The translations under genes were made by a program, and so were the position numbers. Positions 17,117 to 64,000 of a stretch of 64,000 nt of DNA are shown here, piece after piece (position 1 is the first letter of the stretch; each line of letters opens with the position of its first letter). This stretch comes from an uncultured Bacilli bacterium. Its GTDB lineage: Bacteria; Bacillota_I; Bacilli_A; RF39; UBA660. Below the pieces are notes generated by a model. It was not told the origin of the DNA. It ran no database searches and was given only the letters and a program-made list of their open reading frames with translations. The DNA lies in assembly GCA_947632455.1 (NCBI GenBank), contig CANRPK010000004.1:3542-67541 (forward strand), read 5' to 3'.

Positions 17117-17171
17117 TTGACTTTAATAATACCAAAGTATATAATTTAAATATAAATTAGGAATTTCTAAT
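17117..17171 (+). promoter_or_regulatory. Cassette C promoter plus palindromic operator candidate
   Basis: TTGACT (17117-22), 17 nt, TATAAT (17140-45), ATTAGGAATTTCTAAT (17156-71). Confidence 0.75.
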
Positions 17172-17201
17172 AATATTGATAATGGAAAGGGAATAAGAGC
17201 A

Positions 17202-22663: not shown

Positions 22664-22673
22664 CTAATCAACT

Positions 22674-22712
22674 CCTAAAAAAAGACTAGTAAAAACCTAA
22701 AGTCTTTACTAG
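22674..22712 (-). terminator. Rho-independent terminator of the Rieske/FAD gene, immediately before the DUF2075 SD
   Basis: Minus-strand RNA reads CTAGTAAA-gactttaggt-TTTACTAG followed by TCTTTTTTT, then AGGAG and the ATG at 22663. Confidence 0.65.
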
Positions 22713-22740
22713 CCCTTTAATACTTTTATTATAACATAAA

Positions 22741-24159
22741 TTATTTAAAAGTTATATCAAAATTACTCGGACCATTAATACATTTTCCATCTAAAGTAAA
22801 TCTTGAACCATGACATAAACATTCCCATACTCTTTCTGTTTCATTAAATACTATCCCACATTTTAAATGGGGACATCTATTAAGTACAATATATTCTTTA
22901 TTATTATCTTTATATATTAAAACTTTCTTTCCCTTAATAGTTTTGTTAATAACACTTTTATTATTAACATTATTTTTATTACTCTTTGTAAAAGCTTTAA
23001 TATTAGAGTATAAATCTGTAAAAACTCTTCCTAACTTATGTAAATTTAATCCTCTAGTCGGATTAAATAATTCTTCATATTTATTTTGCTTTTCTAATAT
23101 TAAATCTTTTATAATATAACCCGCTAAAACTCCATTAGTCATCCCCCAAGTATTATAACCTGTTGCTAAAAATAAATTATCTTCTATTCCCCCAATAAAT
23201 GGTAAATAATCATTAGTAATTAAATCATTATTAGACCAAATATAATCAAAGTTATTTTTAAAATAATCAAAATTTTTATTTATATCTTTTATATTAGCAC
23301 TCTTTAAAGAATTATTTAAATATATTAAATTATTATTATAATATCTAATTGATATACATGGTTTATCAATACTTATAGCGCTAGATTTTTTATTTGTACT
23401 CTTTTTCACTCCAATATAAGAAGTCTCAATATAATTTTTAAAAGGTAATCCTAAAGGTATTAAAAAATAGGGATAATGACTTGCCATAACTAAATATTTA
23501 GTTTTAATTATCTTACCATTTACTATACATTCATAATAACCATTTACTTTTCTAAATCCTTCTAGTTTTGAATTTTCATATATATAATCTCTGTATTTAT
23601 CTACCCAATAATTAATATATTTTATAGGATTAAATACATAACTATCTTTAATTTTTAATGCCATTTTAACATTTTTGTCAAACATAACATCTGTTATTTT
23701 TTCAATTTCTAAATTATTATCTTTAAAAAATTTATATTCCTCTTCCAATTTTTCTAAGTTTTCTTCTTCAAGTGTAAATAAATAAGCATCAACTTTTTCT
23801 AAATCACAATCTATCTTGTTCTTTATAATTAAATCTTTAAGTAAATTAACTGCCAACACTTGACTATTTAAATATTCTAAAGCTATTTTATTACCTAAAG
23901 TTTTTCTTATATTTATATATGTATCTCCCTGTAAATAAGTTATTTTAGCGGTACTTCTACTAGTAGTTCCAGATCCACATTTATTTTTTTCAATTAAAAT
24001 AGTTTTATATTTTGAATTAATTAAATTAACTAAGGTAGAAATTCCCGTAATACCTCCACCAACGATTAAAATATCGACAACCATATTTTCATCAATACGT
24101 TTCTTTTTTAAATTATTAATTGAATTTTGCCAAATACTATAATTTTTCATAAACATCAT
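22741..24159 (-). CDS. FAD-dependent oxidoreductase with C-terminal Rieske [2Fe-2S] domain (YhfW-like)
   Basis: DILIVGGGITGISTL FAD motif; C-terminal CPHLKC...CLCHGSRF Rieske motif. Confidence 0.75.
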   Translation of the reverse strand: MMFMKNYSIWQNSINNLKKKRIDENMVVDILIVGGGITGISTLVNLINSKYKTILIEKNKCGSGTTSRSTAKITYLQGDTYINIRKTLGNKIALEYLNSQVLAVNLLKDLIIKNKIDCDLEKVDAYLFTLEEENLEKLEEEYKFFKDNNLEIEKITDVMFDKNVKMALKIKDSYVFNPIKYINYWVDKYRDYIYENSKLEGFRKVNGYYECIVNGKIIKTKYLVMASHYPYFLIPLGLPFKNYIETSYIGVKKSTNKKSSAISIDKPCISIRYYNNNLIYLNNSLKSANIKDINKNFDYFKNNFDYIWSNNDLITNDYLPFIGGIEDNLFLATGYNTWGMTNGVLAGYIIKDLILEKQNKYEELFNPTRGLNLHKLGRVFTDLYSNIKAFTKSNKNNVNNKSVINKTIKGKKVLIYKDNNKEYIVLNRCPHLKCGIVFNETERVWECLCHGSRFTLDGKCINGPSNFDITFK

Positions 24160-24465: not shown

Positions 24466-25821
24466 ATGAATAGTTTAAAAAAATATAATACTAAAAGAAA
24501 TTTTAAAGTAACAAAAGAACCGGTAGGTCAAGTTAAAAAATCATCAAAAAAATTAAAATTCTGTATTCAACATCATTTAGCTAAAAAAGATCATTATGAC
24601 TTACGCTTAGAATGGGATGGTGTTTATTTAAGTTGGGCTGTACCTAAAGGCCCATCTTATAACCCTACAGATAAAAGATTAGCAATTAAAGTTGAAGATC
24701 ATCCCTTATCTTATGGTAATTTTGAAGGTACTATCCCAAAAGGTGAATATGGCGCAGGAATAGTAATGCTTTGGGATAAAGGCGAGTTTATACCGGAGAC
24801 AAATTTTAAAGAAAATCTTAAAAAAGGTATTATTAAATTTACTTTAAAAGGAAAAAGAATAAAAGGTAAGTGGTCTTTAGTTAGATTTAAGGAAGATAAT
24901 TGGTTATTATTAAAAGAAAATGATGAATATAAAAATTATGCTAATATTAATAAATATCAAACTAGTATAAAAACCAATCGAACCATGACTGAAATAGAGA
25001 AGGGAAAAACTAAACCCAAAACATCAAGAAAAGAAGCTATAGTATGTGGAATAACTATTACTAACCCCGATAAAGTAATTTTTTCTAATCCTAAAATAAC
25101 TAAACTAGATATAGCCATGTACTATCATAAAATAGCTAAAAAAATGTTACCATATTTACAAAATAGATTAATAAGTACAGTTAGAGCTCCTGAAGGTATT
25201 ACCAAAGAAAAATTTTTCAAAAAACATTTTGATACTAATCCTTATTTAAAAAAAGTAACTATTCCCAGTAAAGAACATAAAGAAGACTATTATTATATAG
25301 CAAATGAAGAAGGTCTAATTTATGAAGTTCAAATGAATAGTTATGAATTTCATATTTGGGGTAGTCAAGTATCAGATTTAAATCATCCCGATTTAATGGT
25401 TTTTGATTTAGATCCCGATGTTAGTTTAAGTTTAAAAAAAGTTCGTGAAGGCGTAAAAGATTTACAAAAAATATTAAAGGAATTTAATTTAAAAGCAAGC
25501 ATCAAAGTAAGTGGAGGAAAAGGTTATCACATTATGGTTCCTATAAAAAATAAAATTTCCTGGGCTAAGTTTAGTAAAATAGCTCAAAATATTGCTGAAT
25601 TATTAGTCGAAAGATACCCCGACAAATATACAACTAATATTAAAAAAGAAGCTCGTAAAGGTAAAATATTTATAGATTATCTTCGCAATAAAAAAAGCGC
25701 TACCTTTGTTGCACCTTTTTCCCTAAGACTAAAATCAAAACCTAGTATATCACTTCCTATTTCTTGGACAGATTTAGATAATATTAAACCAAATGAAATT
25801 TTAATCACCAAATATTTATAA
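24466..25821 (+). CDS. LigD-type 3'-phosphoesterase + primase-polymerase fusion (no ligase domain)
   Basis: PE domain: FCIQHHLAKKDHYDLRLEWDGVYLSWAVPKGPS...VEDHPLSYGNFEGTIPKGEYGAG. Pol domain: ITNPDKVIFSNPKITKLDIAMYYHKIAKKMLPYLQNRLISTVRAPEGI, MVFDLDPD, SGGKGYHI. Confidence 0.8.
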   Translation: MNSLKKYNTKRNFKVTKEPVGQVKKSSKKLKFCIQHHLAKKDHYDLRLEWDGVYLSWAVPKGPSYNPTDKRLAIKVEDHPLSYGNFEGTIPKGEYGAGIVMLWDKGEFIPETNFKENLKKGIIKFTLKGKRIKGKWSLVRFKEDNWLLLKENDEYKNYANINKYQTSIKTNRTMTEIEKGKTKPKTSRKEAIVCGITITNPDKVIFSNPKITKLDIAMYYHKIAKKMLPYLQNRLISTVRAPEGITKEKFFKKHFDTNPYLKKVTIPSKEHKEDYYYIANEEGLIYEVQMNSYEFHIWGSQVSDLNHPDLMVFDLDPDVSLSLKKVREGVKDLQKILKEFNLKASIKVSGGKGYHIMVPIKNKISWAKFSKIAQNIAELLVERYPDKYTTNIKKEARKGKIFIDYLRNKKSATFVAPFSLRLKSKPSISLPISWTDLDNIKPNEILITKYL

Positions 25822-25887: not shown

Positions 25888-27192
25888 ATGTTAAAAAATA
25901 AAAAACTAAGATATTTTATACTAGCAATCATTATTATCCTTATAGGTGTATTTATTTTCTTTGCTATTAAAAAAACTAATAAAGATATAGAAGAAAAACC
26001 TGAGGTTATTCCAAACGATGTCCCTGTTAACCCAGAAGAAAATCTAACTATTAAAGAGGATCTAAAATTACCTTTAAATAGTCCTATTCCTACTATTAAA
26101 GACTTAACTAATCAAGATTTAGAAGGTCAAGTAGAAGTATATTTTGATTATGAATTATATGAAGAAGACACTTTAACTAAAGTTGGAGTATATAATATTG
26201 AATTAATTATCGAAGATCAAACTTATACAACATCTATTACTGTTGTTGATGAAGAAAAACCTACTTTAACTTTAAAAGAATTAACTATCACTGAAGGCCA
26301 AACTTATACTATTAATTCTTTTATAACTAAATGTAGTGATAATAGTAATGAAGCTTGTAGCTATAATTATACTAAAGAAGAAATGGCTAAATATACTAAA
26401 ACCGGAACATATGATATCATAATTGAAGCTAAAGATCCCAGTAATAATGCTACTACAGCTACAACTAAACTAATAATTAAAGCTAAACCAACAACGACTG
26501 ATACCAGCAAAAAAACTGAGGCTAAACCAAGTACTGAAACTAAACCAAGTACTGAAAATAAAACTCCTGAGACTAAACCTAATACTGAAAGTAAAACTAT
26601 TACTGAAGATAAAGAAACTGTAACTTATAAATATGGTGTTAAAATAACTACTATCGAAACTATTACCTATAATGTTGAGGCTGATGATACTAAAACCGAA
26701 ATTAAACGTCAAACAAAAAAGACTACTTATGATAATTCTACCTATAAAGCTACTACTGCCGAATTAAAATCTGAAGCTCAAGCTAATAGTAATACTTATG
26801 CTTCTAAAATAAACGAAATATTACAATATGTAAACTCTTATCGTTCAGAAGTAGATGCCGAAGACTTAGTATTAGATAATAATTTAACCTTAGCTGCTAA
26901 TATTAGAGCTCTAGAATTAGCTTGGTCAGGGAAAATAGAACATGCTAGACCAAATAGTTCTGATCCTCAAAGTTGCTTTACTGTATTATCTGATCTAGGT
27001 ATAAGAAATAATTATTTTACTCTAGGTGAAAATATAGCTGCCTATTTTACTACTCCTAAAGCTGTATCTGAAGGTTGGCGTCAATCTTCTGGTCATTATA
27101 AAAACATGATTAATCAAGATTTTCATAAAATAGGCATAGGAGTAGCTTATCTAAATGGCCAATATTATTGGGTGCAAATGTTTGGCAATTAA
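25888..27192 (+). CDS. Membrane-anchored surface protein with Ig-like region, T/K/P/E repeat linker and C-terminal CAP/SCP (YkwD-like) domain
   Basis: N-terminal TM helix; C-terminus YVNSYRSE...LELAWSGKIEHARPN...GENIA...GWRQSSGHYKNMINQDFHKIGIGV. Confidence 0.75.
   Translation: MLKNKKLRYFILAIIIILIGVFIFFAIKKTNKDIEEKPEVIPNDVPVNPEENLTIKEDLKLPLNSPIPTIKDLTNQDLEGQVEVYFDYELYEEDTLTKVGVYNIELIIEDQTYTTSITVVDEEKPTLTLKELTITEGQTYTINSFITKCSDNSNEACSYNYTKEEMAKYTKTGTYDIIIEAKDPSNNATTATTKLIIKAKPTTTDTSKKTEAKPSTETKPSTENKTPETKPNTESKTITEDKETVTYKYGVKITTIETITYNVEADDTKTEIKRQTKKTTYDNSTYKATTAELKSEAQANSNTYASKINEILQYVNSYRSEVDAEDLVLDNNLTLAANIRALELAWSGKIEHARPNSSDPQSCFTVLSDLGIRNNYFTLGENIAAYFTTPKAVSEGWRQSSGHYKNMINQDFHKIGIGVAYLNGQYYWVQMFGN
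26521..26592 (+). repeat. Four 18-nt (6-aa) tandem repeats encoding (A/T)KPSTE-like units
   Basis: gctaaaccaagtactgaa / actaaaccaagtactgaa / aataaaactcctgagact / aaacctaatactgaaagt. Confidence 0.8.
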
Positions 27193-27575: not shown

Positions 27576-27591
27576 ATAATTGGTGATTAAA

Positions 27592-28806
27592 ATGGAATTA
27601 AAAGAAAAACTCCAAATCCTAGCCGATAGTGCCAAATATGATGCTTCCTGTTCTTCCTCGGGAAGTGACCGCTCTAATAAAAATGGGGTCGGAAATGCAG
27701 CCTATAGTGGTATTTGTCATTCTTTTGCTAGTGATGGAAGATGCATTTCTTTATTAAAAATATTACTCACTAATTGTTGCATATTTGATTGTAAATATTG
27801 TTTAAATCGTCGTAGTAATAATATTAAAAGAGCGATGTTTACTCCTGAAGAAATATGTAATATTACTCTTAATTTTTACCGCCGCAATTATATAGAAGGA
27901 TTATTTTTAAGTTCTGGTATTATTAAAAATCCTGATTATACTATGGAACTTTTAATTGAAACTATTTCTTTACTCCGTTATAAATATAAATTTAATGGTT
28001 ATATTCATGCCAAAGCTATCCCCGGAGCTAGTACAATTCTTTTAAATAGATTAGGTAAATTAGTTGATCGCCTAAGTGCTAATATTGAACTTCCTACTAA
28101 TGATGGCCTAAAACTTTTAGCTCCAGATAAAGATAGTAATAAAGTTGAAAAAATAATGGGCTATGTTAAAGAACATAAAAATAAAAACTTTGTTCCTGCC
28201 GGAGAAAGTACCCAAATGATTATTGGAGCCACCCCTGAAACAGATTTTGATATATTAACTAGAAGTGCATCTATGTATCAAAAATATGAATTAAAAAGAG
28301 TTTTTTATTCTGCTTATATTCCTATTAATACTGATAAGTTATTACCAACTATTGCTAAACCTCCTCTAAAAAGAGAAAATCGTCTTTATCAAGCCGATTG
28401 GCTATTAAGATATTATAACTTTAAAGTTGAAGATTTACTAACTTCAAATAATCCTAATTTTAATTTATTAATTGATCCTAAAGCGGATTACGCTCTAAGA
28501 CATATGGAACAATTTCCTAAAGAAATTAATACAGCGTCCTATAATGATTTATTAAAAATTCCTGGCATAGGAGTTACTAGTGCTAAAAGAATAATTAAAT
28601 CCCGGAAATATTTTAAAATAACCTTTAATGACTTAAAAAAGATGGGAGTAGTCTTAAAAAGAGCAAAATACTTTATTACTTGTAATAATAAATATTGCTT
28701 AGATATGTCCTTATATAAAAAAGATTTTATTGAAAGTAATTTAATTTTAGAAAATAAAAATATTCCAACTTCACCTAGTACCCAACTAAGTTTATTTAAT
28801 GAATAA
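27592..28806 (+). CDS. Putative DNA modification/repair radical SAM protein (TIGR03916-like) with C-terminal HhH
   Basis: LADSAKYDASCSSSG; the CIFDCKYC CX3CX2C cluster; C-terminal LLKIPGIGVTSAKRII helix-hairpin-helix. GGTGA SD before the ATG at 27592. Confidence 0.8.
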   Translation: MELKEKLQILADSAKYDASCSSSGSDRSNKNGVGNAAYSGICHSFASDGRCISLLKILLTNCCIFDCKYCLNRRSNNIKRAMFTPEEICNITLNFYRRNYIEGLFLSSGIIKNPDYTMELLIETISLLRYKYKFNGYIHAKAIPGASTILLNRLGKLVDRLSANIELPTNDGLKLLAPDKDSNKVEKIMGYVKEHKNKNFVPAGESTQMIIGATPETDFDILTRSASMYQKYELKRVFYSAYIPINTDKLLPTIAKPPLKRENRLYQADWLLRYYNFKVEDLLTSNNPNFNLLIDPKADYALRHMEQFPKEINTASYNDLLKIPGIGVTSAKRIIKSRKYFKITFNDLKKMGVVLKRAKYFITCNNKYCLDMSLYKKDFIESNLILENKNIPTSPSTQLSLFNE

Positions 28807-29545
28807 AGTATATTTATATAATAAAACTTTTGTAAATCTTTTAAGTTTAATAACATATTTAATCCAAAATAATATTATCCCAAATGATATTAAACCTATA
28901 GACTATGAACCCAATCTTTTAGACCAAACTATTAATTTAAATATTTCTGATAATTCTAAAATCATTCCCGAATTAAAAAAACATTTTGCAGTTTTAAAGG
29001 TAATGTATTATGTCTTTTTATCTGATCAAAATAATAAAGAATTAATTATTTATTATTTTTACTTAAACTATCTAAAATATTCTCTTCATGTTTTAAATAT
29101 GCGTAATCTTAATTGTGTTACTAAAGCCCTAAAAATAGCTAGTTATGTCAGTAAAGAAAATCATAAATTAAAAGGATTTATAAGATTTAAACAATTAAAT
29201 AATAAAGTGTTATATGCCAAAATAGAACCAACTAATAATGTTATTTTACTACTATCAAATCATTTTCAAAAAAGACTAGCCAATGAATATTGGTTAATCC
29301 ATGATACTAAAAGAAATATAATCAGTTTGTATGATAAAAAACATTTTTATTTAATAAATGCCATAAACCTTAAACTAGATCTTAATGCAAGTGATGAAAT
29401 ATATGAAGATTTATGGCAAACATTTTATGATACAGTAGGAATAAAAGAAAGAAAAAATGATCGTGCCCGGCTAAATTTTATGCCTAAAAAATATTGGAAA
29501 AATATTATAGAAATGAGGAATGAATGTGAAAAAAGTAATCAGTGA
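28799..29545 (+). CDS. DUF4130 / TIGR03915-like putative DNA repair protein, the usual partner of the radical SAM protein
   Basis: Overlaps the upstream gene. C-terminus LWQTFYDTVGIKERKNDRARLNFMPKKYWKNIIE. Confidence 0.7.
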   Translation: MNKVYLYNKTFVNLLSLITYLIQNNIIPNDIKPIDYEPNLLDQTINLNISDNSKIIPELKKHFAVLKVMYYVFLSDQNNKELIIYYFYLNYLKYSLHVLNMRNLNCVTKALKIASYVSKENHKLKGFIRFKQLNNKVLYAKIEPTNNVILLLSNHFQKRLANEYWLIHDTKRNIISLYDKKHFYLINAINLKLDLNASDEIYEDLWQTFYDTVGIKERKNDRARLNFMPKKYWKNIIEMRNECEKSNQ

Positions 29546-31022
29546 TGAAGATTTAAAATTAAAAATTAATGAAGCTATTAAATTAATATGTAATCCCACT
29601 AAAAGAACTTTAGGCCCCAAAGGTTGTAATTCTATTGTGGACCCTTTAGATTTAGCTCCATTTATTACTAATGATGGCGTTACTATTGCCTCGAATATTG
29701 CTAGTGATGATGTCGCAGTAAATACAATCTTAGAAATCATAAAAGAAGCTTCAATTAAAACTAATGAATTAGTCGGAGATGGGACCACTACCACTTTAGT
29801 TTTATTAGAAAGTATTTATAATGCCATTACTAAATTAATTCTTCAAGGTAAAAATCCTATTATATTAAAAGAAGAATTAGAAACTGCGACTAAAGAAGTA
29901 GTTAATTTGTTAAATAATAAAAGTAAAAAGCCTAGCTTAAAAAACTTGCAAAGTATTGCTAGTATAGCTGCAAAAAATAAAGAAATAGGTAAAAATATTG
30001 CCGATGCTTATAAAAAAGTTGGTCCTGGCATTTATTTAGAGGAAAGTCTTGATGAAAAAACCAGTATTGTTTTTAATAAAGGGTATCAGTTTGAAACCCT
30101 CTTAGCATCCCCATATTTTTTAAAATCTCAAGATGAAATAATTTATTCTAATCCTTATATATTAGTAACTAATGAAGAAATAAATTCTGCCAATATCTCG
30201 GCTATTTTAAAATTTATTTTTGATACCAAAAGTTCTTTAATAATTATAGCCAAAGATTATGATGATTATTTTCTTAATAATATACTAAATGACTATTTAG
30301 AAAATACAGCTAATATAATTTTGTTAAAATCTCCAGGATATGGCTTAGAAGAATTAAATATATTAGAAGATATAGCCACTATTAGTGATAGTAATTTAAT
30401 GAGTAATAATTTTTGTGTATCTTCGTTGGGAAAAGTTCCTCAAATAAAAATTAATAAAGAAATAACTACTATTGAATTTAATCCTAGCCCCAAAATTAAT
30501 AGTTATCTAAAAACTTTAAGTAAAAATACTTCTTCAGTTCGCAAAAATATGTTAACTAAAGGTTCAGTTACAATTAAAATAGGCTCACCAACTTCAACTG
30601 AGACTAAAGAAAAGAAAATGCATTATGAAGATGCTCTATGGGCTATAAATATTGCTAAAGATGGAGTATTACCGGGCTCAGGAATAACTCTTTATGAAAT
30701 AAGTGATAATCTGCCAAATAAAACGAATGGTTATCAAATATTAAAAGAAGCTCTAAAAGCTCCTCTAAATCAAATTTTATTAAATGCTGGTATTTCCCCG
30801 GATACTATTATTTCTAAAATCCGCACCATTAATTTTACTAAGATATATAATGTTATGACAAATACATATGAAGATATAAAAACTACCGAAATAATAGATC
30901 CTAGTTTAGTAATTATTACGGCCCTAAAAAATGCTGTTAGTATTGCAAGTATCTTAGCTACCACTACCTCACTCATCATTAATGAACAAGCACCCATAAG
31001 TAAAGAAGATTTTAATTTATAA
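29526..31022 (+). CDS. Divergent, shortened GroEL/Cpn60-family chaperonin-like protein with no adjacent GroES
   Basis: RTLGPKGCNSIV, ITNDGVTIA, ELVGDGTTTTLVLLESI, YEDALWAINIAKDGVLPGSG. About 498 aa with no GGM tail. The start is ambiguous (GTG 29526 with GAGG 7 nt upstream, or ATG 29520). Overlaps the DUF4130 gene. Confidence 0.7.
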   Translation: MKKVISDEDLKLKINEAIKLICNPTKRTLGPKGCNSIVDPLDLAPFITNDGVTIASNIASDDVAVNTILEIIKEASIKTNELVGDGTTTTLVLLESIYNAITKLILQGKNPIILKEELETATKEVVNLLNNKSKKPSLKNLQSIASIAAKNKEIGKNIADAYKKVGPGIYLEESLDEKTSIVFNKGYQFETLLASPYFLKSQDEIIYSNPYILVTNEEINSANISAILKFIFDTKSSLIIIAKDYDDYFLNNILNDYLENTANIILLKSPGYGLEELNILEDIATISDSNLMSNNFCVSSLGKVPQIKINKEITTIEFNPSPKINSYLKTLSKNTSSVRKNMLTKGSVTIKIGSPTSTETKEKKMHYEDALWAINIAKDGVLPGSGITLYEISDNLPNKTNGYQILKEALKAPLNQILLNAGISPDTIISKIRTINFTKIYNVMTNTYEDIKTTEIIDPSLVIITALKNAVSIASILATTTSLIINEQAPISKEDFNL

Positions 31023-44794: not shown

Positions 44795-45247
44795 TTATAA
44801 AGAATGTTTAGAATTATCAATTTTCCCTAATAAATAATCCGCGGATATATTTAATTTCTCACAATAAGTATATAAAAAAGAAGTAGTAATAAATGTCTTC
44901 CCTTGTTCATATCTACACCAAACAGAATGATCAATATTAAGTAAAACTCCCACTCTAACTTGAGTTAAACCAGCATCTTTTCTGCTTTCTTTAAGTCTTT
45001 TAGTTAAAATATCTTTATCATATCCCTTTCTACTATTTATATAATTATAATTATTAGTAAACCCAAAAATATAATCTAAAGAAACATTAAAATAATCACA
45101 AAACTTAATTAAATTTTTCAAAGTAATAGTATCATGAGCCGTTTCATTCATTCCATACGTTCCTAAAGATATACCTAAAATTTTAGCTATATCTTTTTGC
45201 TTTAAATTATTATTTTCTCGTATTATTCGCAGTCTCTTTAACTCCAT
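44795..45247 (-). CDS. Tandem double-HTH XRE-family regulator, cassette D (most divergent)
   Basis: MELKRLRIIRENNNLKQKDIAKIL... plus LTKRLKESRKDAGLTQVRVGVLL...CEKLNISADYLLGKID. GGTGA SD before the ATG at 45247. Confidence 0.8.
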   Translation of the reverse strand: MELKRLRIIRENNNLKQKDIAKILGISLGTYGMNETAHDTITLKNLIKFCDYFNVSLDYIFGFTNNYNYINSRKGYDKDILTKRLKESRKDAGLTQVRVGVLLNIDHSVWCRYEQGKTFITTSFLYTYCEKLNISADYLLGKIDNSKHSL

Positions 45248-45319
45248 AGTCATCACCACGTTTATTCTAACAATATTTATTATTTCAAAAATAAATTATA
45301 GGGAAATAACACATTTTTC

Positions 45320-45374
45320 TTGACTTTAATAATAGCAAAGTATATAATTTAAATATAAATTAGGAATTTCTAAT
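45320..45374 (+). promoter_or_regulatory. Cassette D promoter plus palindromic operator candidate
   Basis: TTGACT (45320-25), 17 nt, TATAAT (45343-48), ATTAGGAATTTCTAAT (45359-74). Confidence 0.75.
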
Positions 45375-45404: not shown

Positions 45405-46895
45405 ATGAAATTAGAAAAATTGGAGGATAATACCTCCAAAGTAAAGGGAGTAATAATAGGGATATTACTAACTATAGGATTAGTAATATTAATAAACTAT
45501 ATAACGAGTTTAGCAAGATATCGAAATACAGAGAGTATAGAGCTAGCAAGTGGAAATATAAGTTATAATAAAGCAGATCTAAATATAATAGCAATGTATC
45601 AAGAAAGTAGTTATGGTACAAATGGCTATAAACAAATAGATGATGTACCAACTGAAAAATATACCTTAAGTAATAAAAGCTATTGTGAAGTAGGAGGACA
45701 AAAAGTAGAAGAAGCCCAAATAACATATGAAGAAGGGTATATAAGTGTAAGTAAAATAAATAAAAGAGGAACAAAATGCTATATATATTTTGATATGGAT
45801 TATACATCAGAAGATATGTTAGCAAAACTAGAAGCAACAAAACAAAGCAAATATACCATAGACACAATGCCAAGCCCAATCACAGGACCATATGATGAGA
45901 ATACAGAAAATCCAGAACATAAAGAGAAATTATATACAGCCGAAGATAATTATGGAACAAGCTATGTATTTAGAGGAAATAATAATGATGTAAATAACTG
46001 GGTAACATTTGCTAATCATACATGGAGAATAATCAGAATAAATGGCGATGGAACATTAAGAATGATCTATCAATGCGCAACACCTGGATGTACAGACACC
46101 GAAAGAGATAGTACCCAAATATCATGGGGAATTCCTTATAAATCAGCCCCAACTGATGATAATACCTATGCGGGCTATTATTATGGGGAACCAAACCAAG
46201 AAGAAGGGGAAGAAGGATTTAAAGAAACCCATTCAAATAAGTACCCAAATGATATTGTGAAAGTAATAAAAAATTGGTACACAACTGATCGTGGTAAAAT
46301 GACAGAATACACAAAATATTTAAGCGGAGATACAGGATTTTGTAATGATCGAGTTGTTGTAAATGTTCCAGGTTATGGTAAAGGCACAGGCAAATCTATA
46401 ACAATATTTGGATCATCAATTCGGCATAATAACATTAACAAATATAGAACTGAACAGTACCCAACTTTAAAATGCGGTGCAAATATTACCAGCCCTGAAA
46501 TAAAAAATTTGACAAATTTTGAAATTGATGAAAATGCTTTAAAAAGAGATTTATATACATTAGAAGGATCTAGTCAAGGCAATGGGGTATTAGATATTCC
46601 GGCAGCAACAATCACAAATGATGAAGCAGTTATGGCCGGAGGCTTTATGGGAACAGCATCAACAAATTATTGGCTATATACTAATGGAGGCTATTGGACA
46701 ATGTCTCCGGCTGGTTATAATATCAATAATTGGTCAAGTATATTCCGCGTTAATGGTGATGGAGCAATAACAAGTGGAAATGCACAAGATACATGGTTAG
46801 GAATTCGCCCAGTAATAAACTTGAATGCTGATGCTCAATTTACACAAGGAGATGGAACTCCAACTAATCCTTTTATAGTAAATACAGACATATAA
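45405..46895 (+). CDS. Paralog D of the ~500-aa family (most divergent C-terminal half)
   Basis: 496 aa. N-terminus identical in type to B and C. Family blocks are retained (GFCNDR, YPTLKCG, YWLYTNGGYWTMSP, IRPVINL). Confidence 0.9.
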   Translation: MKLEKLEDNTSKVKGVIIGILLTIGLVILINYITSLARYRNTESIELASGNISYNKADLNIIAMYQESSYGTNGYKQIDDVPTEKYTLSNKSYCEVGGQKVEEAQITYEEGYISVSKINKRGTKCYIYFDMDYTSEDMLAKLEATKQSKYTIDTMPSPITGPYDENTENPEHKEKLYTAEDNYGTSYVFRGNNNDVNNWVTFANHTWRIIRINGDGTLRMIYQCATPGCTDTERDSTQISWGIPYKSAPTDDNTYAGYYYGEPNQEEGEEGFKETHSNKYPNDIVKVIKNWYTTDRGKMTEYTKYLSGDTGFCNDRVVVNVPGYGKGTGKSITIFGSSIRHNNINKYRTEQYPTLKCGANITSPEIKNLTNFEIDENALKRDLYTLEGSSQGNGVLDIPAATITNDEAVMAGGFMGTASTNYWLYTNGGYWTMSPAGYNINNWSSIFRVNGDGAITSGNAQDTWLGIRPVINLNADAQFTQGDGTPTNPFIVNTDI

Positions 46896-46899
46896 AAAA

Positions 46900-46939
46900 C
46901 TTGCCTATACGTCTTCTTCTTATTCTAAGTATAGGCAAG
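46900..46939 (+). repeat. Family 3' stem-loop, copy D (stem CTTGCCTATAC / GTATAGGCAAG)
   Basis: 11-bp perfect inverted repeat with loop GTCTTCTTCTTATTCTAA. Confidence 0.8.
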
Positions 46940-46951
46940 ATATATTTATCA

Positions 46952-46974
46952 AATAGGGTTTACCCCTATTTTTT
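46952..46974. terminator. Terminator between paralog D and the convergent regulator E
   Basis: AATAGGG-tttac-CCCTATT followed by a T-run. Confidence 0.65.
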
Positions 46975-47197
46975 ATTTTATTATACTTTTTGGATAGGGC
47001 TTTCTCTCATCAGTTTGATAAAGTAAATAATCAATACTAGTGTTATAATATAATGCTAGTTTTTTTAATATATCCGTAGGTATATCATTTGTTTCAACCT
47101 CATATTTTGAATAACCTGTTTGGGACATATTCAAATATTTTGCAACATCTTTTTGGTATAAGTCTCTATCTTCTCTAAGTTCTTTTAATCTATTCAT
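46973..47197 (-). CDS. Single-HTH XRE-family regulator, cassette E
   Basis: 74 aa: MNRLKELREDRDLYQKDVAKYLNMSQTGYSKYEVETNDIPTDILKKLALYYNTSIDYLL. Confidence 0.85.
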   Translation of the reverse strand: MNRLKELREDRDLYQKDVAKYLNMSQTGYSKYEVETNDIPTDILKKLALYYNTSIDYLLYQTDERKPYPKSIIK

Positions 47198-47240
47198 TCT
47201 ATATCCTCATAAGCACTTTATCATAATCTAAAATAGATTA

Positions 47241-47294
47241 TTGACTTTTAACCCAAAATGGCTTATTATATTAATATAACCCAAAACAGGTTAT
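47241..47294 (+). promoter_or_regulatory. Cassette E control region: a different promoter and two 19-nt AACCCAAAA repeats
   Basis: TTGACT (47241-46), 17 nt, TATTAT (47264-69). TTAACCCAAAATGGCTTAT (47248-66) and ATAACCCAAAACAGGTTAT (47276-94); the latter is an ATAACC-N7-GGTTAT inverted repeat. There is no ATTAGGAATTTCTAAT palindrome here. Confidence 0.6.
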
Positions 47295-47359
47295 AAAGAT
47301 ATATGAACTTTTTGTAATAAACGGATAATTATTACATTATAAAGGAGGAAAGGAAAGAT

Positions 47360-48874
47360 ATGAAATTAAAAGGGTTAAGTAAAGAAAAAGATAAAAAATT
47401 ATTTATATGTGGTTTTATAGTATGTGCAATATTATTTATAGTAATAAACTATATAACCAGTTTAGCAAGATATAGGAATACAGAGAGTATAGAACTAGCA
47501 AGTGGAAATATAAACTACAATAAAGCAGATCTAAACATAATAGCAATGTATCAAGAAAAAGATAATAGCACTAAAGAAGAAAAAGAATATGTAAGTATAA
47601 GTAAGATACCTACAACAGGATATAAATTAAGTGAAGATAGTTATTGTGAAGTAGGTAAACAAAGAGTAGAAGAAGCAGAAATAATATATGATGGACAATA
47701 TATAGGAGTAAACAAACTAAGTGAAAAAGGAACAAAATGTTATATATATTTTGATAGTTTAGTAAAAGAGATGTTAGGTAAATTGGAAACTTCAAAGGGA
47801 AGTAAATATAGCATAGATGCAATGCCAAATCCCATAACTGGAATGTATGATGAAACTACAGAAAATCCAGAAGGAAAAGAAAAATTATATACAACCGAAG
47901 ATAACTATGGAACAAGTTATGTATTTAGGGGAAACAACGATGATGTAAATAACTGGGTAACATTTGCAAATCATACATGGAGGATAATCAGAATAAATGG
48001 AGATGGCACATTAAGAATGATATACCAATGTGCAGAACCAAATTGTACAACAACCGAAGGAGCTGAAACTCAAATAGGAAGAAGCGCATATAATAGTGAA
48101 AACAATGATAACACTTATGTCGGCTATTATTATGGAACAGCACATACAGATGAAAAACCAAATCCAAGTTATGACGAAACTCATTCAAATTCAACTCCTA
48201 GTACAGTAGCAAAAACAATAGAAACGTGGTATACCGACACAGGGAAAATGAATGATTATACCGATTACTTAGATGGAAATACAGGATGGTGTAATGATCG
48301 AACAGTGGTAAAAAATGTTTGGCCTGATTATAACGGAAATGGTACTGGTCAAACCGCAACAAGTTATGCACCTTCATCAAGATTAATTCCAACTAACCAA
48401 GGCTGGAGAACAAAACAATATCCAACATTAAAGTGTGGTGCAAAAATGCCCGAAACAAGTCCATCAAATGATACTGGATTTAGTAGTTTTGATGAAATAG
48501 ATCCTATAGCTTTAAAAAGAGATTTATATACAATAGAAGGATCAAATAGAGGAAATGCAAAGCTTTCAGTTCCAGCTGCATTAATTACTAGTGATGAATA
48601 TGTTATGGCCGGAGGTTTTGCAGGTGCTGTATCAACTAACTACTGGCTATATACTAACCAAACTTATTGGACAATCTCTCCAATTTACTACCTTGCCAAT
48701 AATGATACAGTTCAAGTATTCTTTGTGCGTGCTGATGGTGCCCTCTTCGGTGGTTGGAGTGTGAATTGGACTACTCCTGGTGCACGCCCAGTAATCAACC
48801 TAAAATCTAATATTGAATTTAGTGGAGGTACTGGTAAATCTGATAATCCTTTTATAGTTAATACAGGTAATTAA
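47360..48874 (+). CDS. Paralog E of the ~500-aa family
   Basis: 504 aa with the alternative N-terminus MKLKGLSKEKDKKLFICGFIVCAILFIV shared with F. Family blocks are present. Confidence 0.9.
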   Translation: MKLKGLSKEKDKKLFICGFIVCAILFIVINYITSLARYRNTESIELASGNINYNKADLNIIAMYQEKDNSTKEEKEYVSISKIPTTGYKLSEDSYCEVGKQRVEEAEIIYDGQYIGVNKLSEKGTKCYIYFDSLVKEMLGKLETSKGSKYSIDAMPNPITGMYDETTENPEGKEKLYTTEDNYGTSYVFRGNNDDVNNWVTFANHTWRIIRINGDGTLRMIYQCAEPNCTTTEGAETQIGRSAYNSENNDNTYVGYYYGTAHTDEKPNPSYDETHSNSTPSTVAKTIETWYTDTGKMNDYTDYLDGNTGWCNDRTVVKNVWPDYNGNGTGQTATSYAPSSRLIPTNQGWRTKQYPTLKCGAKMPETSPSNDTGFSSFDEIDPIALKRDLYTIEGSNRGNAKLSVPAALITSDEYVMAGGFAGAVSTNYWLYTNQTYWTISPIYYLANNDTVQVFFVRADGALFGGWSVNWTTPGARPVINLKSNIEFSGGTGKSDNPFIVNTGN

Positions 48875-48876
48875 TA

Positions 48877-48914
48877 CTTGCTTATATTGCTTTCTTATTC
48901 CAAATATAAGCAAG
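48877..48914 (+). repeat. Family 3' stem-loop, copy E (same variant as copy A)
   Basis: CTTGCTTATATT / AATATAAGCAAG with loop GCTTTCTTATTCCA. Confidence 0.8.
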
Positions 48915-48923
48915 ATATATTTA

Positions 48924-48946
48924 TAGGGTTTAAAACCCTATTTTTT
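48924..48946 (+). terminator. Terminator of paralog E
   Basis: ATAGGGTTT-aa-AACCCTAT followed by a T-run. Confidence 0.75.
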
Positions 48947-60810: not shown

Positions 60811-61263
60811 TCAAAAACTAATAGAATCATCAATTCTTCCCATTAAATAATCCGCGGATATATTATATTTTTTACATATATCATATAAATATAAAGTATT
60901 AATAAGCATTCTCCCTCGTTCATAATCAGAAATAACTGATTGAGTAGTATTAAGTATATTTTTTAAATCATTTTGTGTTAATTTTTTTTCTTTTCTAAAT
61001 TCTTTTAATCTATTCCCAGCATCTTTATTATCAACATCTAATCGTATCCTATTATAATTTTTATCTTTAGTAAATCCAAATATATAATCTAAGGAAATAT
61101 TAAAGTAATTTGCTACTTTAATTAAATGCTTAATAGGCATTATATAATATTCTCTTTCATATTGCCCATATACATCAATATCTAGTTCTAACATAGTAGA
61201 AACAGCCCGTTGGGTAATTCCTAAATTTTCCCTAATTTCCTTCAACTTTTCGCCATATATCAT
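60811..61263 (-). CDS. Tandem double-HTH XRE-family regulator, cassette F
   Basis: MIYGEKLKEIRENLGITQRAVSTML... plus AGNRLKEFRKEKKLTQNDLKNIL...ICKKYNISADYLMGRID. AGGTGA SD before the ATG at 61263. Confidence 0.85.
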   Translation of the reverse strand: MIYGEKLKEIRENLGITQRAVSTMLELDIDVYGQYEREYYIMPIKHLIKVANYFNISLDYIFGFTKDKNYNRIRLDVDNKDAGNRLKEFRKEKKLTQNDLKNILNTTQSVISDYERGRMLINTLYLYDICKKYNISADYLMGRIDDSISF

Positions 61264-61339
61264 TGATAAATCACCTAAAAATAATTTTCTCATATAAAGT
61301 ATTTTAAAAAATAAAAACGAGAAAATAGCGATATTTTTC

Positions 61340-61394
61340 TTGACTTTGATAATAGCAGATATTATAATTTAAATATAAATTAGAAATTTCTAAT
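61340..61394 (+). promoter_or_regulatory. Cassette F promoter plus perfect 16-bp palindrome
   Basis: TTGACT (61340-45), 17 nt, TATAAT (61363-68), ATTAGAAATTTCTAAT (61379-94, perfectly self-complementary). Confidence 0.75.
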
Positions 61395-61415: not shown

Positions 61416-62954
61416 ATGAAATTAAAAGGGTTAAGTAAAGAAAAAGATAAGAAATTATTTATATATGGTTTTATAGTATGTGCAATATTATTTATAGTAA
61501 TAAACTATATAACAAGCCTAGCAAGATATAGAAATACAGAAAGTATAGAACTAGCAAGTGGAAATATAAGTTATAATAAAGCAGATTTAAATATAATAGC
61601 GATATATCAAGAAAAAGATAATAGTACATCTGAAGAAAAAGAATATGTAAGTATAAGTAAGATACCTACAGCAGGATATAAACTAAGCAATAAAAGTTAT
61701 TGTGAAGTAGGAAAACAAAGAGTAGAAGAAGCAGAATTTACATTAAATGAAAAAGGAATAACAATAGCAAACTTACAAGAAAAAGGAACAAAATGTTATA
61801 TATACTTTGATAGCCTAGTAAAAGAGATGTTAGGTAAATTGGAAACTTCAAAAGGAAGCAAATATACAATCGATGCAATGCCTAATCCGATTACTGGAGT
61901 ATATAATGCAGATGTAGAAAATCCCGAAGGAAAAGATAAATTATATATTAGTCCAGACAATTATGGAACAAGTTATGTCTTTAGAGGAAATAATGATGAT
62001 GTAAATAATTGGGTAAATTTTGCTAATCATACATGGAGAATAATCAGGATAAATGGAGATGGCACATTAAGGTTAATATTTCAATGTGCAGAACCAAATT
62101 GTACAGATACAACAGGAGAAAAAACTATTGCATTAGGCGGAACTGCTTATAAGCCTACCCAATTTGATGATAATACCTATGTAGGATATTATTATGGAAC
62201 ATCAAAAGCAAATAAAGGAGATGCCGGAGATCCAACATATGAAGAAGCTCATTCAAATACTACACCAAGTAATATAGCTAATGCAGTTCAGACATGGTAT
62301 AACGAAGCCGGAGCGATGAAAAATTATACAGAATATCTAGATGGAAATACGGGATGGTGTAATGATCGAACAGTAGTAAAAAATGTTTGGTCTAATTATG
62401 ACGGAAATGGTACTGGTCAGACTGCAACAGGTTATGCCCCGGCTTCTAGATTAATAGTAAAAAATGAAACTTATGGAGATTTTCGAACAAAACAATATCC
62501 AACGTTGAAGTGTGGAGTAGAAATGCCAGAAGAAAACCAATCAGAGGAAACGGCATCAAATGATTTTATTAATTTTGATATAAATGATGCATTTCTAAAA
62601 AGGGATTTATTTACAATAGAAGGCTCAAGTCTAGGTAATGCTAAACTTCCAGTACCAGCTGCATTAATCACAAGTGATGAAATAGTAATGGCAGGGGGCT
62701 TTGGAGGTACTGTATCAACTGATTACTGGCTATACACTAACCAATATTATTGGACAATGTCTCCGTATCACTATTATATTACTGATAAGTGGGCTGCCGT
62801 GTTCGTTGTACGTGATAGTGGCATCCTCGGTGGTGGCGCTGTGAATTGGACTACTCCTGGTGTGCGTCCAGTAATTAATCTTAATGCCAATATAGAATTT
62901 AGTGGAGGAAATGGTAAATCTAGTAGTCCATTTATAGTAAATACAAGTAATTAA
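61416..62954 (+). CDS. Paralog F of the ~500-aa family
   Basis: 512 aa. N-terminus of the E type; the second block is the same as in C. Family blocks are present. Confidence 0.9.
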   Translation: MKLKGLSKEKDKKLFIYGFIVCAILFIVINYITSLARYRNTESIELASGNISYNKADLNIIAIYQEKDNSTSEEKEYVSISKIPTAGYKLSNKSYCEVGKQRVEEAEFTLNEKGITIANLQEKGTKCYIYFDSLVKEMLGKLETSKGSKYTIDAMPNPITGVYNADVENPEGKDKLYISPDNYGTSYVFRGNNDDVNNWVNFANHTWRIIRINGDGTLRLIFQCAEPNCTDTTGEKTIALGGTAYKPTQFDDNTYVGYYYGTSKANKGDAGDPTYEEAHSNTTPSNIANAVQTWYNEAGAMKNYTEYLDGNTGWCNDRTVVKNVWSNYDGNGTGQTATGYAPASRLIVKNETYGDFRTKQYPTLKCGVEMPEENQSEETASNDFINFDINDAFLKRDLFTIEGSSLGNAKLPVPAALITSDEIVMAGGFGGTVSTDYWLYTNQYYWTMSPYHYYITDKWAAVFVVRDSGILGGGAVNWTTPGVRPVINLNANIEFSGGNGKSSSPFIVNTSN

Positions 62955-63035: not shown

Positions 63036-63488
63036 TTAAAAACTAATAGGTTCATCAATTCTTCCAAGTAAATAATCTGCAGATATATTATATTTCTTAC
63101 ATATTGTATATAAAAATGGTGTAGAAATTAAATATCTACCTCGTTCATAATCCGCTATAACAGATTGAGTAGTGTTTAAATAATTAGCAAGTTCTAATTG
63201 GGTAAGTTTAAGACTTTTACGCCACTCTTTAAGATTTTTACCAGCTTTAATATTATTTGCTTTTTTCTTAATATTTTTATATTCTTGAATAGAAGTAAAA
63301 CTAAAAATAAAATCTAAAGAAACATTAAAATAATTACATAAAGTAATTAAATGTTTAATTGGAATAGTTTGTTTTTCCTTTTCATATCTTCCATATAGAC
63401 TTTTATCAATTTCTAACATTTTTGACATTTCAGTTTGACTAATTCCAATTCTTTCTCTCATATTTTTTATGTTTTCTCCATAATTCAT
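63036..63488 (-). CDS. Tandem double-HTH XRE-family regulator, cassette G
   Basis: MNYGENIKNMRERIGISQTEMSKML... plus AGKNLKEWRKSLKLTQLELANYL...ICKKYNISADYLLGRIDEP. GGTGA SD before the ATG at 63488. Confidence 0.85.
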   Translation of the reverse strand: MNYGENIKNMRERIGISQTEMSKMLEIDKSLYGRYEKEKQTIPIKHLITLCNYFNVSLDFIFSFTSIQEYKNIKKKANNIKAGKNLKEWRKSLKLTQLELANYLNTTQSVIADYERGRYLISTPFLYTICKKYNISADYLLGRIDEPISF

Positions 63489-63561
63489 ACTATTCACCAA
63501 GATAATTTTCTCATTAAAATAGGTATTAATAAAAAATAGTGGATAAATACCGATATTTTTC

Positions 63562-63616
63562 TTGACTTTGAGTATATCAAAGTATATAATTTAAATATAA
63601 GTTAGGAATTTCTAAT
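63562..63616 (+). promoter_or_regulatory. Cassette G promoter plus palindromic operator candidate
   Basis: TTGACT (63562-67), 17 nt, TATAAT (63585-90), GTTAGGAATTTCTAAT (63601-16). Confidence 0.7.
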
Positions 63617-63637: not shown

Positions 63638-64000
63638 ATGAAAATAGAAAGGTTAGATACAGATAATAAAAGGAATAAAACAATATTTGCAGTAGGTTTT
63701 ATTTTAGCAATAATATTAGTAATAGTAATAAATTATATAACCAGTTTAGCAAGATATCGAAATACAGAAAGTATAGAACTAGCAAGTGGAAATATAAACT
63801 ACAATAAGGCAGATTTAAATATAATAGCGATGTATCAAGAAAGTAGTTATAGTACAAATGGCTATAAACAAATAGATGATGTGCCAACTGAAAAATATAC
63901 ATTAAGTAATAAAAGCTATTGTGAAGTAAATAAAGAAAAAGTTGAAGAAGCCCAAATAACATATGAAGAAGGATATATAAGCGTAAGTAAAATAAATAAA
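63638..64000 (+). CDS. Paralog G of the ~500-aa family (3' end outside window)
   Basis: Not in the ORF track because it is open-ended. Hand translation: MKIERLDTDNKRNKTIFAVGFILAIILVIVINYITSLARYRNTESIELASGNINYNKADLNIIAMYQESSYSTNGYKQIDDVPTEKYTLSNKSYCEV...EEAQITYEEGYISVSKINK. This is a third N-terminal type, and the second block is as in D. Confidence 0.85.
   Translation, partial: MKIERLDTDNKRNKTIFAVGFILAIILVIVINYITSLARYRNTESIELASGNINYNKADLNIIAMYQESSYSTNGYKQIDDVPTEKYTLSNKSYCEVNKEKVEEAQITYEEGYISVSKINK

Follow-up and report, generated by a model that had tools for sequence, protein, structure and literature searches.

Mosaic structure of a family of regulator-paired, predicted lectin-like genes in an uncultured Bacilli bacterium

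The gene family described here was found in a 64,000-nucleotide (nt) stretch of DNA (hereafter, the window) from an uncultured Bacilli bacterium of the RF39 lineage UBA660 (GenBank assembly GCA_947632455.1, contig CANRPK010000004.1, positions 3,542 to 67,541 of the forward strand). Searches with tblastn, using the D protein as the query, reveal seven paralogs, A to G, all on the plus strand. Each copy whose 5' region lies in the window is paired with a minus-strand gene for an XRE-type regulator, and the paralogous proteins are predicted to be exported and lectin-like. In all likelihood, the structural genes of these dispersed two-gene cassettes exchange short tracts by inter-locus gene conversion, which would diversify a binding or antigenic surface.

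Paralog A (positions 1 to 1200, delimited by tblastn and alignment) is cut at its 5' end by the window border, and its full-length form is P0005; paralog G (63638 to 64000) is cut at its 3' end. The complete copies, B (14978 to 16501; 507 amino acids [aa]), C (17202 to 18710; 502 aa), D (45405 to 46895; 496 aa), E (47360 to 48874; 504 aa), and F (61416 to 62954; 512 aa), are all intact full-length open reading frames (ORFs). Their products of 496 to 512 aa share 57 to 74% identity, and D is the most divergent of the copies. The original prediction of a mosaic family was attached to the interval from 45405 to 48874, which holds only D, E, and the regulator gene of E, but the observation concerns all seven copies. 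They are interspersed with such chromosomal genes as truA, mnmE, mnmG, rsmG, parB, cysS, a glycosyltransferase cluster, and uvrB; the region is not a mobile element, and the genes around the paralogs are ordinary chromosomal ones. P0024, a protein encoded outside the window, has a fourth N-terminal type (MKIEKIGETNKYRW) and probably represents an eighth copy just past one window end.

Mosaic blocks and tests for recombination

In the protein alignment, the N-terminal types are MKLEKLEDNTSKVKG in B, C, and D, MKLKGLSKEKDKK in E and F, and MKIERLDTDNKRNK in G. The block that follows is EEAEI(T/I)YDGQYIGVNKLSEKG in B and E, EEAEFTLNEKGITIANLQEKG in C and F, EEAQITYEEGYISVSKINK in D and G, and EEVEIEYLNSEINISHLTEKG in A; a variable block lies at aa 96 to 120 in D (approximately 45690 to 45764) and at aa 99 to 123 in E (47654 to 47728). 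The resulting combinations are 1a in B, 1b in C, 1c in D, 2a in E, 2b in F, and 3c in G. Farther downstream, the affinities change again, with DSLVKEMLGKLETSKGSKY common to A, E, and F and with YDENTENPEHKEKLYT and CATPGCTDT common to A and D. The C-terminal tail is NTGN in A and E and KTNI in B and C. All these strings, and the nucleotide identities given with them, had been quoted in the original prediction, and every one of them is present in the alignment in the copies named there. The same is true of its near-identical block in C (17511 to 17588) and F (61722 to 61799), which extends over 78 nt and differs at only one G/A position. The full-length form of A adds a further combination, 2d, as it has N-terminal type 2 and the block EEVEIEYLNSEINISHL.

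Block sharing persists in a proper codon alignment and is far beyond chance. A sliding-window comparison shows that, at nt 1 to 90, B, C, and D are 97 to 100% identical and E and F are 96% identical, with approximately 50% identity across the groups. At nt 181 to 300, C, E, and F are 83 to 91% identical and D and G are 96% identical. The pairs that stand out at nt 301 to 360 are B and E (91 to 93%), C and F (90 to 98%), and D and G (85 to 95%); at nt 451 to 630, A and E are 91 to 96% identical. Among B to F, the first 120 nt contain 35 informative sites for the split BCD|EF, and nt 301 to 360 contain 14 sites for an incompatible split, BDE|CF or BE|CF.

We implemented the pairwise homoplasy index (PHI) test and applied it to the codon alignment; z is -10.6 for B to F and -7.8 for A to F, in both cases with a P value at the floor of 2000 permutations. 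In a 3SEQ-like maximum-descent test, 26 of the 120 parent-parent-child triplets are at the permutation floor of 0.0005, with 0.06 expected. These tests and the split counts reveal phylogenetic incongruence between the blocks, and they bear out the proposal of segmental conversion or recombination among dispersed loci. Third codon positions are 84 to 97% identical in the shared blocks versus 46 to 60% in pairs that do not share a block, which indicates that block sharing reflects common descent of the DNA rather than convergence of the proteins.

These results leave little room for a history without recombination, in which old duplicates would have diverged while the shared blocks were kept or made alike by selection on the protein. 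Such selection exists, as aa 29 to 66 and aa 181 to 220 are clearly under strong purifying selection. However, adjacent segments support incompatible splits, the PHI and triplet tests are positive, synonymous third positions in the shared blocks are as alike as the amino-acid-determining positions, and the synonymous divergence (dS) jumps tenfold inside one gene between two strains (see below). Unless the alignments are wrong, this combination refutes the alternative, which we consider extremely improbable.

C and D share an exact match of 143 nt, the longest between any two copies, followed by 83 nt in B and C and in B and D; all other pairs have at most 56 nt. Most block junctions are located in imperfectly matching DNA, where exact identity extends for only 30 to 56 nt, a finding that speaks against chimeric assembly.

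The same loci in other strains and in a related genus

Two assemblies of the same species from other samples, L018 (ERZ27249158) and L019 (ERZ27249647), are collinear with parts of the window. The L018 contig covers window positions 35405 to 56895 with a 97.3% match. Its divergence from the window is 1.3 to 1.9% in the flanks and 0.9 to 2.4% in the two regulator genes but reaches 11.5% in D and 7.9% in E, and the differences within D and E form discrete peaks with a maximum of 46 per 200 nt. At nt 271 to 390, the L018 ortholog of E is only 58 to 62% identical to E, compared to 93 to 97% identity to C and 83 to 92% to F, so that the block EEAEIIYDGQY... of the window strain is swapped for EEAEFTLNEKG... 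in L018. The first 120 nt of the same gene are 98 to 100% identical to F and 92 to 96% identical to E. In the L018 ortholog of D, nt 271 to 420, 991 to 1080, and 1261 to 1470 are replaced by sequence with no donor found in the window. The replaced tracts of D and E have dS values of 0.5 to 0.96 (0.55 for nt 1261 to 1470 of D), whereas the least-changed segments of the same genes, such as nt 1 to 270 of D and nt 661 to 990 of E, have values of about 0.06 to 0.1. With this contrast inside single genes, the replaced tracts look like imported sequence.

The L019 contig, collinear with window positions 4978 to 17803, has 0.98% divergence in the flank, 1.2% in the regulator gene of B, and 0% in the regulator gene of C and its intergenic region. 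The divergence is 19.9% in B and 20% in the first 600 nt of C; it starts about 100 to 200 nt inside each gene and, in B, stops at the stop codon. Across both strains, the paralogs thus differ by 8 to 20% versus 0 to 2.4% for flanks and regulators, and the tracts are roughly 60 to 200 nt long. The same locus bears different mosaics in strains whose flanks are 1 to 2% apart. This comparison of the same loci between strains had been proposed along with the original prediction, and its outcome agrees with it.

One detail of the L019 alignment (L019 positions 10001 to 12818, window positions 14978 to 17803) is of a different kind. At nt 181 to 240, the L019 ortholog of B is C-like (95 to 97%) and its ortholog of C is B-like (93%), a pattern that has the appearance of a reciprocal swap between neighbors rather than one-way conversion.

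All the sequences are metagenome assemblies, and the mosaics might be viewed as an assembly artifact, with short reads of paralogs or strains joined into chimeric genes. The exact repeats of 143 nt and 83 nt could confuse a k-mer graph, and some related contigs (L017 and L019) end at or inside a paralog. However, the blocks joined at the short junctions described above are 85 to 98% identical, not 100%. Three independent assemblies from different samples are collinear, and B, D, and E are each bordered on either side by DNA of low divergence. Identical block types are found again in approximately 50 proteins encoded on many contigs and also in a different genus, whose paralogs are mosaic as well (see below). 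An artifact is, accordingly, a highly improbable source of the pattern.

A wider view comes from a protein search, which yields 1687 relatives. The 52 closest of these (55 to 100% identical, from many contigs), when cut into segments, show 9 N-terminal types, 6 types of aa 67 to 98, and 11 types of aa 99 to 123, and 36 combinations of the N-terminal type with the type of aa 99 to 123 are observed. The mutual information between the N-terminal type and the next blocks equals the shuffled expectation (P = 0.28 and 0.70). In contrast, the blocks at aa 67 to 98, 99 to 123, and 124 to 162 are linked to one another (P ≤ 0.0005). The statement that blocks are combined independently thus holds for the N-terminal type relative to the blocks that follow it and only in part for the blocks farther along.

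A metagenome-assembled genome of a related genus (CANQYU01, uncultured Bacilli, isolate "Lapin-015 bin56"; MnmG is 84% identical) yields 16 full-length paralogs. A divergent XRE gene is located 65 to 158 nt upstream in all 15 loci that can be checked. Loci A, B, and F occupy conserved chromosomal positions: in both genomes, the truA-mnmE-mnmG-parB block lies between A and B, and uvrB and a DUF6020 gene precede F. The best CANQYU01 counterparts of the regulators of E and G are 89% and 83% identical, respectively, compared to 34 to 63% mutual aa identity of the regulators within one genome. The conservation of positions and regulators indicates that the loci and their regulators are old and stable.

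The paralogs themselves behave differently. Their aa identity is 57 to 74% within the window and 37 to 52% between the window and CANQYU01, and the three pairs of positional orthologs (A, B, and F; 38, 49, and 47%) are no closer than other cross-genome pairs. The CANQYU01 paralogs are also mosaic (PHI z = -41). Clustering by genome in spite of conserved positions points to concerted evolution, with homogenization within and fast divergence between genomes.

The donors of the exchanged tracts need not always reside in the same genome. If the mosaics arose mainly by homologous recombination with DNA of other strains or species, i.e., by allelic replacement after horizontal transfer, this would account for the three tracts of the D ortholog that have no donor among the window copies, for donor-like matches of 93 to 97% that fall short of near-identity, and for a population that contains many more block types than one genome. 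On the other hand, the same blocks occur with 90 to 100% nucleotide identity at nonallelic loci of one contig. Allelic import alone would not make paralogs cluster by genome at positions kept across genera. The divergence also ends sharply at the borders of the transcription unit, next to regulators with 0 to 2.4% divergence, which fits the limits of homology between paralogs. As the main source of the mosaics, such import is improbable, and it is unlikely to be their sole cause; import of alleles from other strains probably contributes too, so that conversion and import probably both act.

Predicted fold and control of the paralogous proteins

The structural proteins of the window have no match in Pfam, NCBIfam, PADLOC, or PHROGs, and no close relative was found among viral contigs. 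An origin in a defense system or a phage was considered and rejected, as the large protein lacks PADLOC and PHROGs matches and the regulators match only generic helix-turn-helix (HTH) models. A profile of the family matches 11,349 clusters at 50% identity, but no curated model covers the family. The matches include giant proteins (e.g., P0255, 4905 aa) in which the large domain described below is repeated in tandem, up to 17 times.

The AlphaFold2 model of E, built with 80 homologs, has a mean predicted local distance difference test score (pLDDT) of 90.4 and a predicted template modeling score (pTM) of 0.85. It consists of a helix (residues 12 to 37), a low-confidence linker (37 to 55), a small β domain (approximately 59 to 133), a second helix (134 to 146), and a large globular domain (approximately 150 to 504) that extends to the C-terminal end. 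In 63 to 66 of the 80 homologs, the N-terminal hydrophobic run is followed by [ST]-x-A and then by (K/R/N)-Y-R. The [ST]-x-A motif fits a signal peptidase site, and the protein might be cleaved there or, alternatively, be retained by an uncleaved signal anchor. The motif (K/R)YRNTESxxLASG(N/T)I is reminiscent of the mature N terminus of TasA/CalY, but a SipW/TasA-type signal is not detected: the N-terminal 67 aa have no NCBIfam match at E ≤ 10, and Pfam is also negative.

The sole Foldseek match in the PDB is the immunoglobulin A (IgA) peptidase of Thomasclavelia ramosa (9qa6; E = 2.7e-3, probability 0.98, TM-score of 0.27 over 353 columns), and a profile search of PDB sequences gives no match. 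Among the 10 best matches in BFVD, 4 are named DUF6273 (E values of 1e-4 to 5e-2, TM-score on the target of at most 0.53). The N-terminal domain of the T. ramosa IgA peptidase is annotated as DUF6273 (PMC12402451); it has a C-type-lectin-like core enlarged to twice the usual size, is dispensable for IgA cleavage, and has no assigned function (PMC12237041). In phage tentaclins, the DUF6273 domain is the target of a diversity-generating retroelement (DGR), and its variable region is a surface β-hairpin (PMC10743442). Two of the three distant homologs tested, P0075 (28.6 bits) and P0087 (23.6 bits), reach the gathering score of the Pfam DUF6273 model (23.5 bits), with a match that comprises only the last ~45 residues (model positions 127 to 171). 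Judging by the model, the large domain of E appears to resemble the enlarged C-type-lectin-like and DUF6273 domains.

Sequence variation in the family is unevenly distributed. Column entropy reaches its maximum of 2.0 to 2.6 bits at aa 441 to 470 (48680 to 48769 in E), where 52 proteins display 50 types. This peak falls on a predicted hairpin with strands at residues 436 to 445 and 450 to 456 of E, between the conserved YWTMSP and RPVINL motifs, and lies within the part matched by the DUF6273 model in the distant homologs. Secondary peaks are found in the small β domain, at aa 71 to 80 and 101 to 120 (the block that follows the N terminus), and in loops at aa 231 to 250, 261 to 270, and 341 to 380. 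In contrast to these peaks, aa 29 to 66, 121 to 130, and 181 to 220 are nearly identical across the copies. The paralogs probably encode lectin-like binders that are secreted or located at the surface, with diversifying pressure acting on their variable faces.

The predicted fold and the location of the hairpin match those of the targets in phage DUF6273 proteins (PMC10743442), as does the Pfam match of the distant homologs over the same stretch, and a DGR could in principle be the source of its hypervariability. Yet neither the 30 flanking ORFs scanned with Pfam nor any gene called in the stretch collinear with L018 (35405 to 56895) matches a reverse transcriptase family, and in blastn searches each 3' hypervariable region matches only its paralogs, with no template-like copy in the window. 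The variable tracts also differ at synonymous sites (the dS of 0.55 for nt 1261 to 1470 of D), whereas a DGR alters only template adenines. A DGR is rejected for the window, in which the scanned ORFs contain no such reverse transcriptase and no template-like copy exists, and it is a most unlikely agent of the diversity of the hairpin, although one located elsewhere in the genome might act in trans.

The regulator genes, all on the minus strand and transcribed divergently from their paralogs, are located at 14359 to 14874 (B), 16584 to 17042 (C; 0% divergent from L019), 44795 to 45259 (D), 46973 to 47197 (E; 74 aa), 60811 to 61293 (F), and 63036 to 63500 (G). All six upstream genes match the Pfam HTH_3/HTH_19 models (E values of 1e-12 to 1e-27); the regulator of E contains a single HTH and the other five contain two. 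Co-variation of the N-terminal type of the paralog with its regulator was rejected, as the regulators of B, C, and D are only 42 to 54% identical and are no closer to each other than other pairs.

Upstream of B, C, D, F, and G, a stretch of about 95 nt is near-identical and includes TTGACT, a 17-nt spacer, TATAAT, the palindrome TTAGGAATTTCTAA, and then the ribosome-binding site (RBS). In B, the promoter with its palindrome spans 14893 to 14946 (palindrome at 14933 to 14946), and in D, where the two promoter hexamers have 11 of 12 matches, it spans 45320 to 45373 (palindrome at 45360 to 45373); the palindromes of F and G are at 61380 to 61393 and 63602 to 63615. Within the window, TTAGGAATTTCTAA is confined to these five like promoters (10 strand-hits with at most 1 mismatch versus 0.86 expected), and it is the presumed operator. 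The XRE proteins are probably repressors that act on the neighboring genes through this palindrome, which is located just downstream of the -10 box. The control region of E (46973 to 47359) is unlike those of the other loci, with its single-HTH regulator and two 18-nt direct repeats, TAACCCAAAAYRGSTTAT, at 47249 to 47266 and 47277 to 47294, which overlap the promoter (47241 to 47294; TTGACT, 17 nt, TATTAT). F combines a promoter of the kind seen in B, C, D, and G with an RBS region and an N terminus of the E kind, which means that the mosaic reaches upstream of the start codon.

At the other end of the gene, all six copies with a 3' end in the window (A to F) have a conserved region within about 90 nt after the stop codon. 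It contains the hairpin ACTTGC(C/T)TAT ... ATA(G/A)GCAAG followed by a T-tailed hairpin and comes in two sequence types, one in A, E, and F and the other in B, C, and D. In D (46890 to 46971), the first hairpin is ACTTGCCTATAC...GTATAGGCAAG, and the second one is terminator-like; E (48868 to 48941) also has the conserved hairpin and a terminator-like one. This 3' flank may serve as a terminator or stability element and, in addition, as the 3' homology anchor of the cassette. Each copy is thus a monocistronic unit of about 1.75 kb with a sigma-70-like promoter, a presumed operator, an ORF of ~500 aa, and a hairpin with a terminator. With conserved stretches at both ends, homogenization extends over the entire transcription unit (approximately -95 to +90), and the regulators lie just outside it.

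The completeness of these units bears on a comparison with classical programmed antigenic variation of the pilE/pilS, vlsE, tprK, or MgPar type, in which one expression site is supplied by silent promoterless cassettes. Segmental and apparently nonreciprocal transfer of short tracts is what such a system would produce. However, B to F are intact ORFs, each of the six copies with a 5' region in the window (B to G) is equipped with a separate promoter, RBS, and regulator gene, and A to F have the conserved terminator region; tblastn with D detects no truncated or promoterless copies in the window. A silent-cassette arrangement is, hence, very improbable here.

Phase variation by repeats or inversion was likewise rejected. 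The promoters and the 5' coding parts contain no simple-sequence (tandem) repeats and no homopolymers of at least 8 nt, promoter-flanking inverted repeats were not found in the window, and no recombinase family is matched by the 30 flanking ORFs (Pfam) or by the genes called in the interval from 35405 to 56895.

A more speculative scheme, which we regard as doubtful, is that the paralog-specific XRE repressors, which share one operator type at most loci, cross-repress, so that one or a few lectin-like variants would be produced per cell while conversion renews the repertoire. If so, the loci would form a transcription-factor-based system of antigenic or adhesive variation in uncultured gut Bacilli, and recombination among paralogs would take over the role that DGRs have in other systems, varying the ligand-binding hairpin of a DUF6273/C-type-lectin fold.

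Proposed mechanism, related systems, and neighboring genes

The structural genes exchange tracts of ~60 to 200 nt by homologous recombination between nonallelic copies, most probably through gene conversion; the exchange is confined to the transcription unit, and the regulators stay out of it. The near-identical stretches that flank the variable blocks (the promoter and leader, aa 29 to 66, 121 to 130, and 181 to 220, and the 3' flank), with exact runs of 30 to 143 nt between copies, could serve as homology anchors. Runs of this size reach or exceed the minimum commonly cited for exchange that depends on RecA. Because the copies have the same orientation and are separated by housekeeping genes (mnmE, mnmG, parB, cysS, and uvrB), crossovers would delete genes, and only non-crossover products would persist. 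The observed outcomes are block combinations that differ from locus to locus, strain-specific mosaics at one locus, and concerted evolution. The process would diversify a surface that binds ligands or acts as an antigen, with host immunity, host glycans, or phages as the source of the pressure, and diversity is highest in the β domain (aa 67 to 123) and, above all, in the hairpin at aa 441 to 470.

Several points weigh against this interpretation. Some replaced tracts, such as nt 271 to 420 of the D ortholog, lack a donor in the window, and the donor-like matches are at 93 to 97%, not 99%; the actual donors would be the other strain's own copies. All the sequences come from short-read assemblies, and none is a complete genome. 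That the proteins reach the surface, bind ligands, are controlled by the XRE regulators, and have a cleaved signal peptide is in each case a prediction. The fold matches are weak in TM-score (0.16 to 0.27 on the query), and Pfam DUF6273 (PF19789) does not match D, E, or B, with D and E negative even at E ≤ 10. Finally, the dN/dS ratio in the hypervariable stretch is about 0.25 to 1.4, but it is saturated in several pairs and confounded by recombination, so positive selection is not demonstrated.

Among the systems that resemble the window family, the opa genes of Neisseria are similar in having several complete dispersed loci at conserved positions, with variable regions re-assorted by recombination and with near-identical segments shared by the copies of one genome. 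Opa proteins are small outer-membrane β-barrels of a Gram-negative pathogen, switched on and off by the CTCTT coding repeat. The window family instead encodes a 500-aa lectin-like protein of an uncultured low-GC Bacilli organism, has a dedicated XRE regulator at each locus, and lacks coding or promoter repeats, although repeat-based phase variation defines opa in particular and not the wider kind. The bab/sab/hop genes of Helicobacter pylori, including babA and babB, are full-length adhesin paralogs at fixed loci, where RecA-type gene conversion generates chimeric genes and strain-specific repertoires. They differ from the window family in the fold, the cell envelope, and the number of interacting copies, and their loci lack a paired regulator; lectin activity has been demonstrated for BabA and SabA but is only predicted for the family described here. 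The window family works like the opa and bab/hop families, in that its loci are complete, dispersed, and fixed in position, its variable regions are re-assorted, and its diversity greatly exceeds the average of the genome (PMC13183285). It does not work by silent cassettes, by repeat-driven phase variation, or, within the window, as the target of a DGR.

The silent-cassette systems (Neisseria pilE/pilS, Borrelia vlsE, Treponema tprK, and Mycoplasma genitalium mgpB/MgPar) share with it the short-tract, mostly nonreciprocal conversion that leads to mosaic surface proteins. They combine one expression site with promoterless partial donors, whereas every copy that can be judged here is a complete transcription unit. 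The vsp, vpma, and vlhA genes of Mycoplasma, a group of relatives of Bacilli that are small, low in G+C, and associated with hosts, form variable surface protein families in which the 5' parts are conserved and the bodies vary. Their products are lipoproteins, varied by site-specific promoter inversion, repeat expansion, or pseudogene conversion; the window family, in contrast, has no lipobox, recombinase, or repeats, and the signal peptide region is itself a variable block. The likeness to 9qa6 and the tentaclins consists in a predicted fold that may be DUF6273-like, a domain of about double the usual C-type-lectin-like size, and the variable hairpin, but here the diversification proceeds through recombination of paralogs rather than a retroelement, and there is no protease or tail fiber context. 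As phage proteins with the fold predicted here are targets of DGRs, the family would offer a natural comparison of two routes to diversify one binding scaffold.

Full-text literature searches return nothing on this gene family, which appears to be undescribed, as do its association with private XRE regulators and its occurrence in this host lineage. Rapidly recombining families of surface proteins are familiar from a few pathogens in culture, but there are hardly any examples among uncultured commensals, which make up most of gut metagenomes. The present family is not covered by any Pfam or NCBIfam model, yet its profile reaches about 11,000 clusters. The paralogs are the fastest-evolving part of the genome (8 to 20% divergence versus 0 to 2% in the adjoining DNA). 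They are strain-level markers, are likely to break short-read assemblies, and may help to determine how the bacterium interacts with its host, glycans, antibodies, or phages. The presence of a conserved private regulator beside a homogenized and diversified gene allows the control of repertoire expression to be tested in a system without phase variation repeats.

Other genes of the window deserve brief mention. In the housekeeping block between A and B, mnmE, mnmG, rsmG, an unnamed ORF, and parB follow each other at 7314 to 13362, an arrangement typical of the neighborhood of a replication origin, with nearly all genes on the plus strand; the paralog loci may be clustered near the origin on the leading strand. 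The same housekeeping block contains a gene for a HipA-like kinase (4606 to 5805); the corresponding stretch of the related genus (L003/L014) contains both of its neighbors but no match to the kinase gene itself. Two minus-strand genes at 20804 to 24159, encoding a Schlafen-like helicase and a flavin adenine dinucleotide (FAD) oxidoreductase with a Rieske domain, coincide with a GC skew of -0.19 to -0.38 and may represent an inserted or inverted segment; the mean G+C content of the window is 26%.

Farther downstream, a LigD-type protein (24466 to 25821) contains phosphoesterase and primase-polymerase domains but has no Pfam match to a ligase domain; it represents a component of nonhomologous end joining in an apparently small, low-GC genome. 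The next gene (25888 to 27192) encodes a CAP (cysteine-rich secretory protein) domain protein with a coding tandem repeat at 26516 to 26613 (period of 51 or 18 nt), likely another secreted, repeat-bearing protein. The segment from 27580 to 31022 consists of a radical-SAM gene, a DUF4130 gene, and a gene for a 500-aa protein of the Cpn60/TCP-1 family. The best Pfam match of this protein is limited to its N-terminal half, and a chaperonin-like gene of this kind is unusual in a bacterium.

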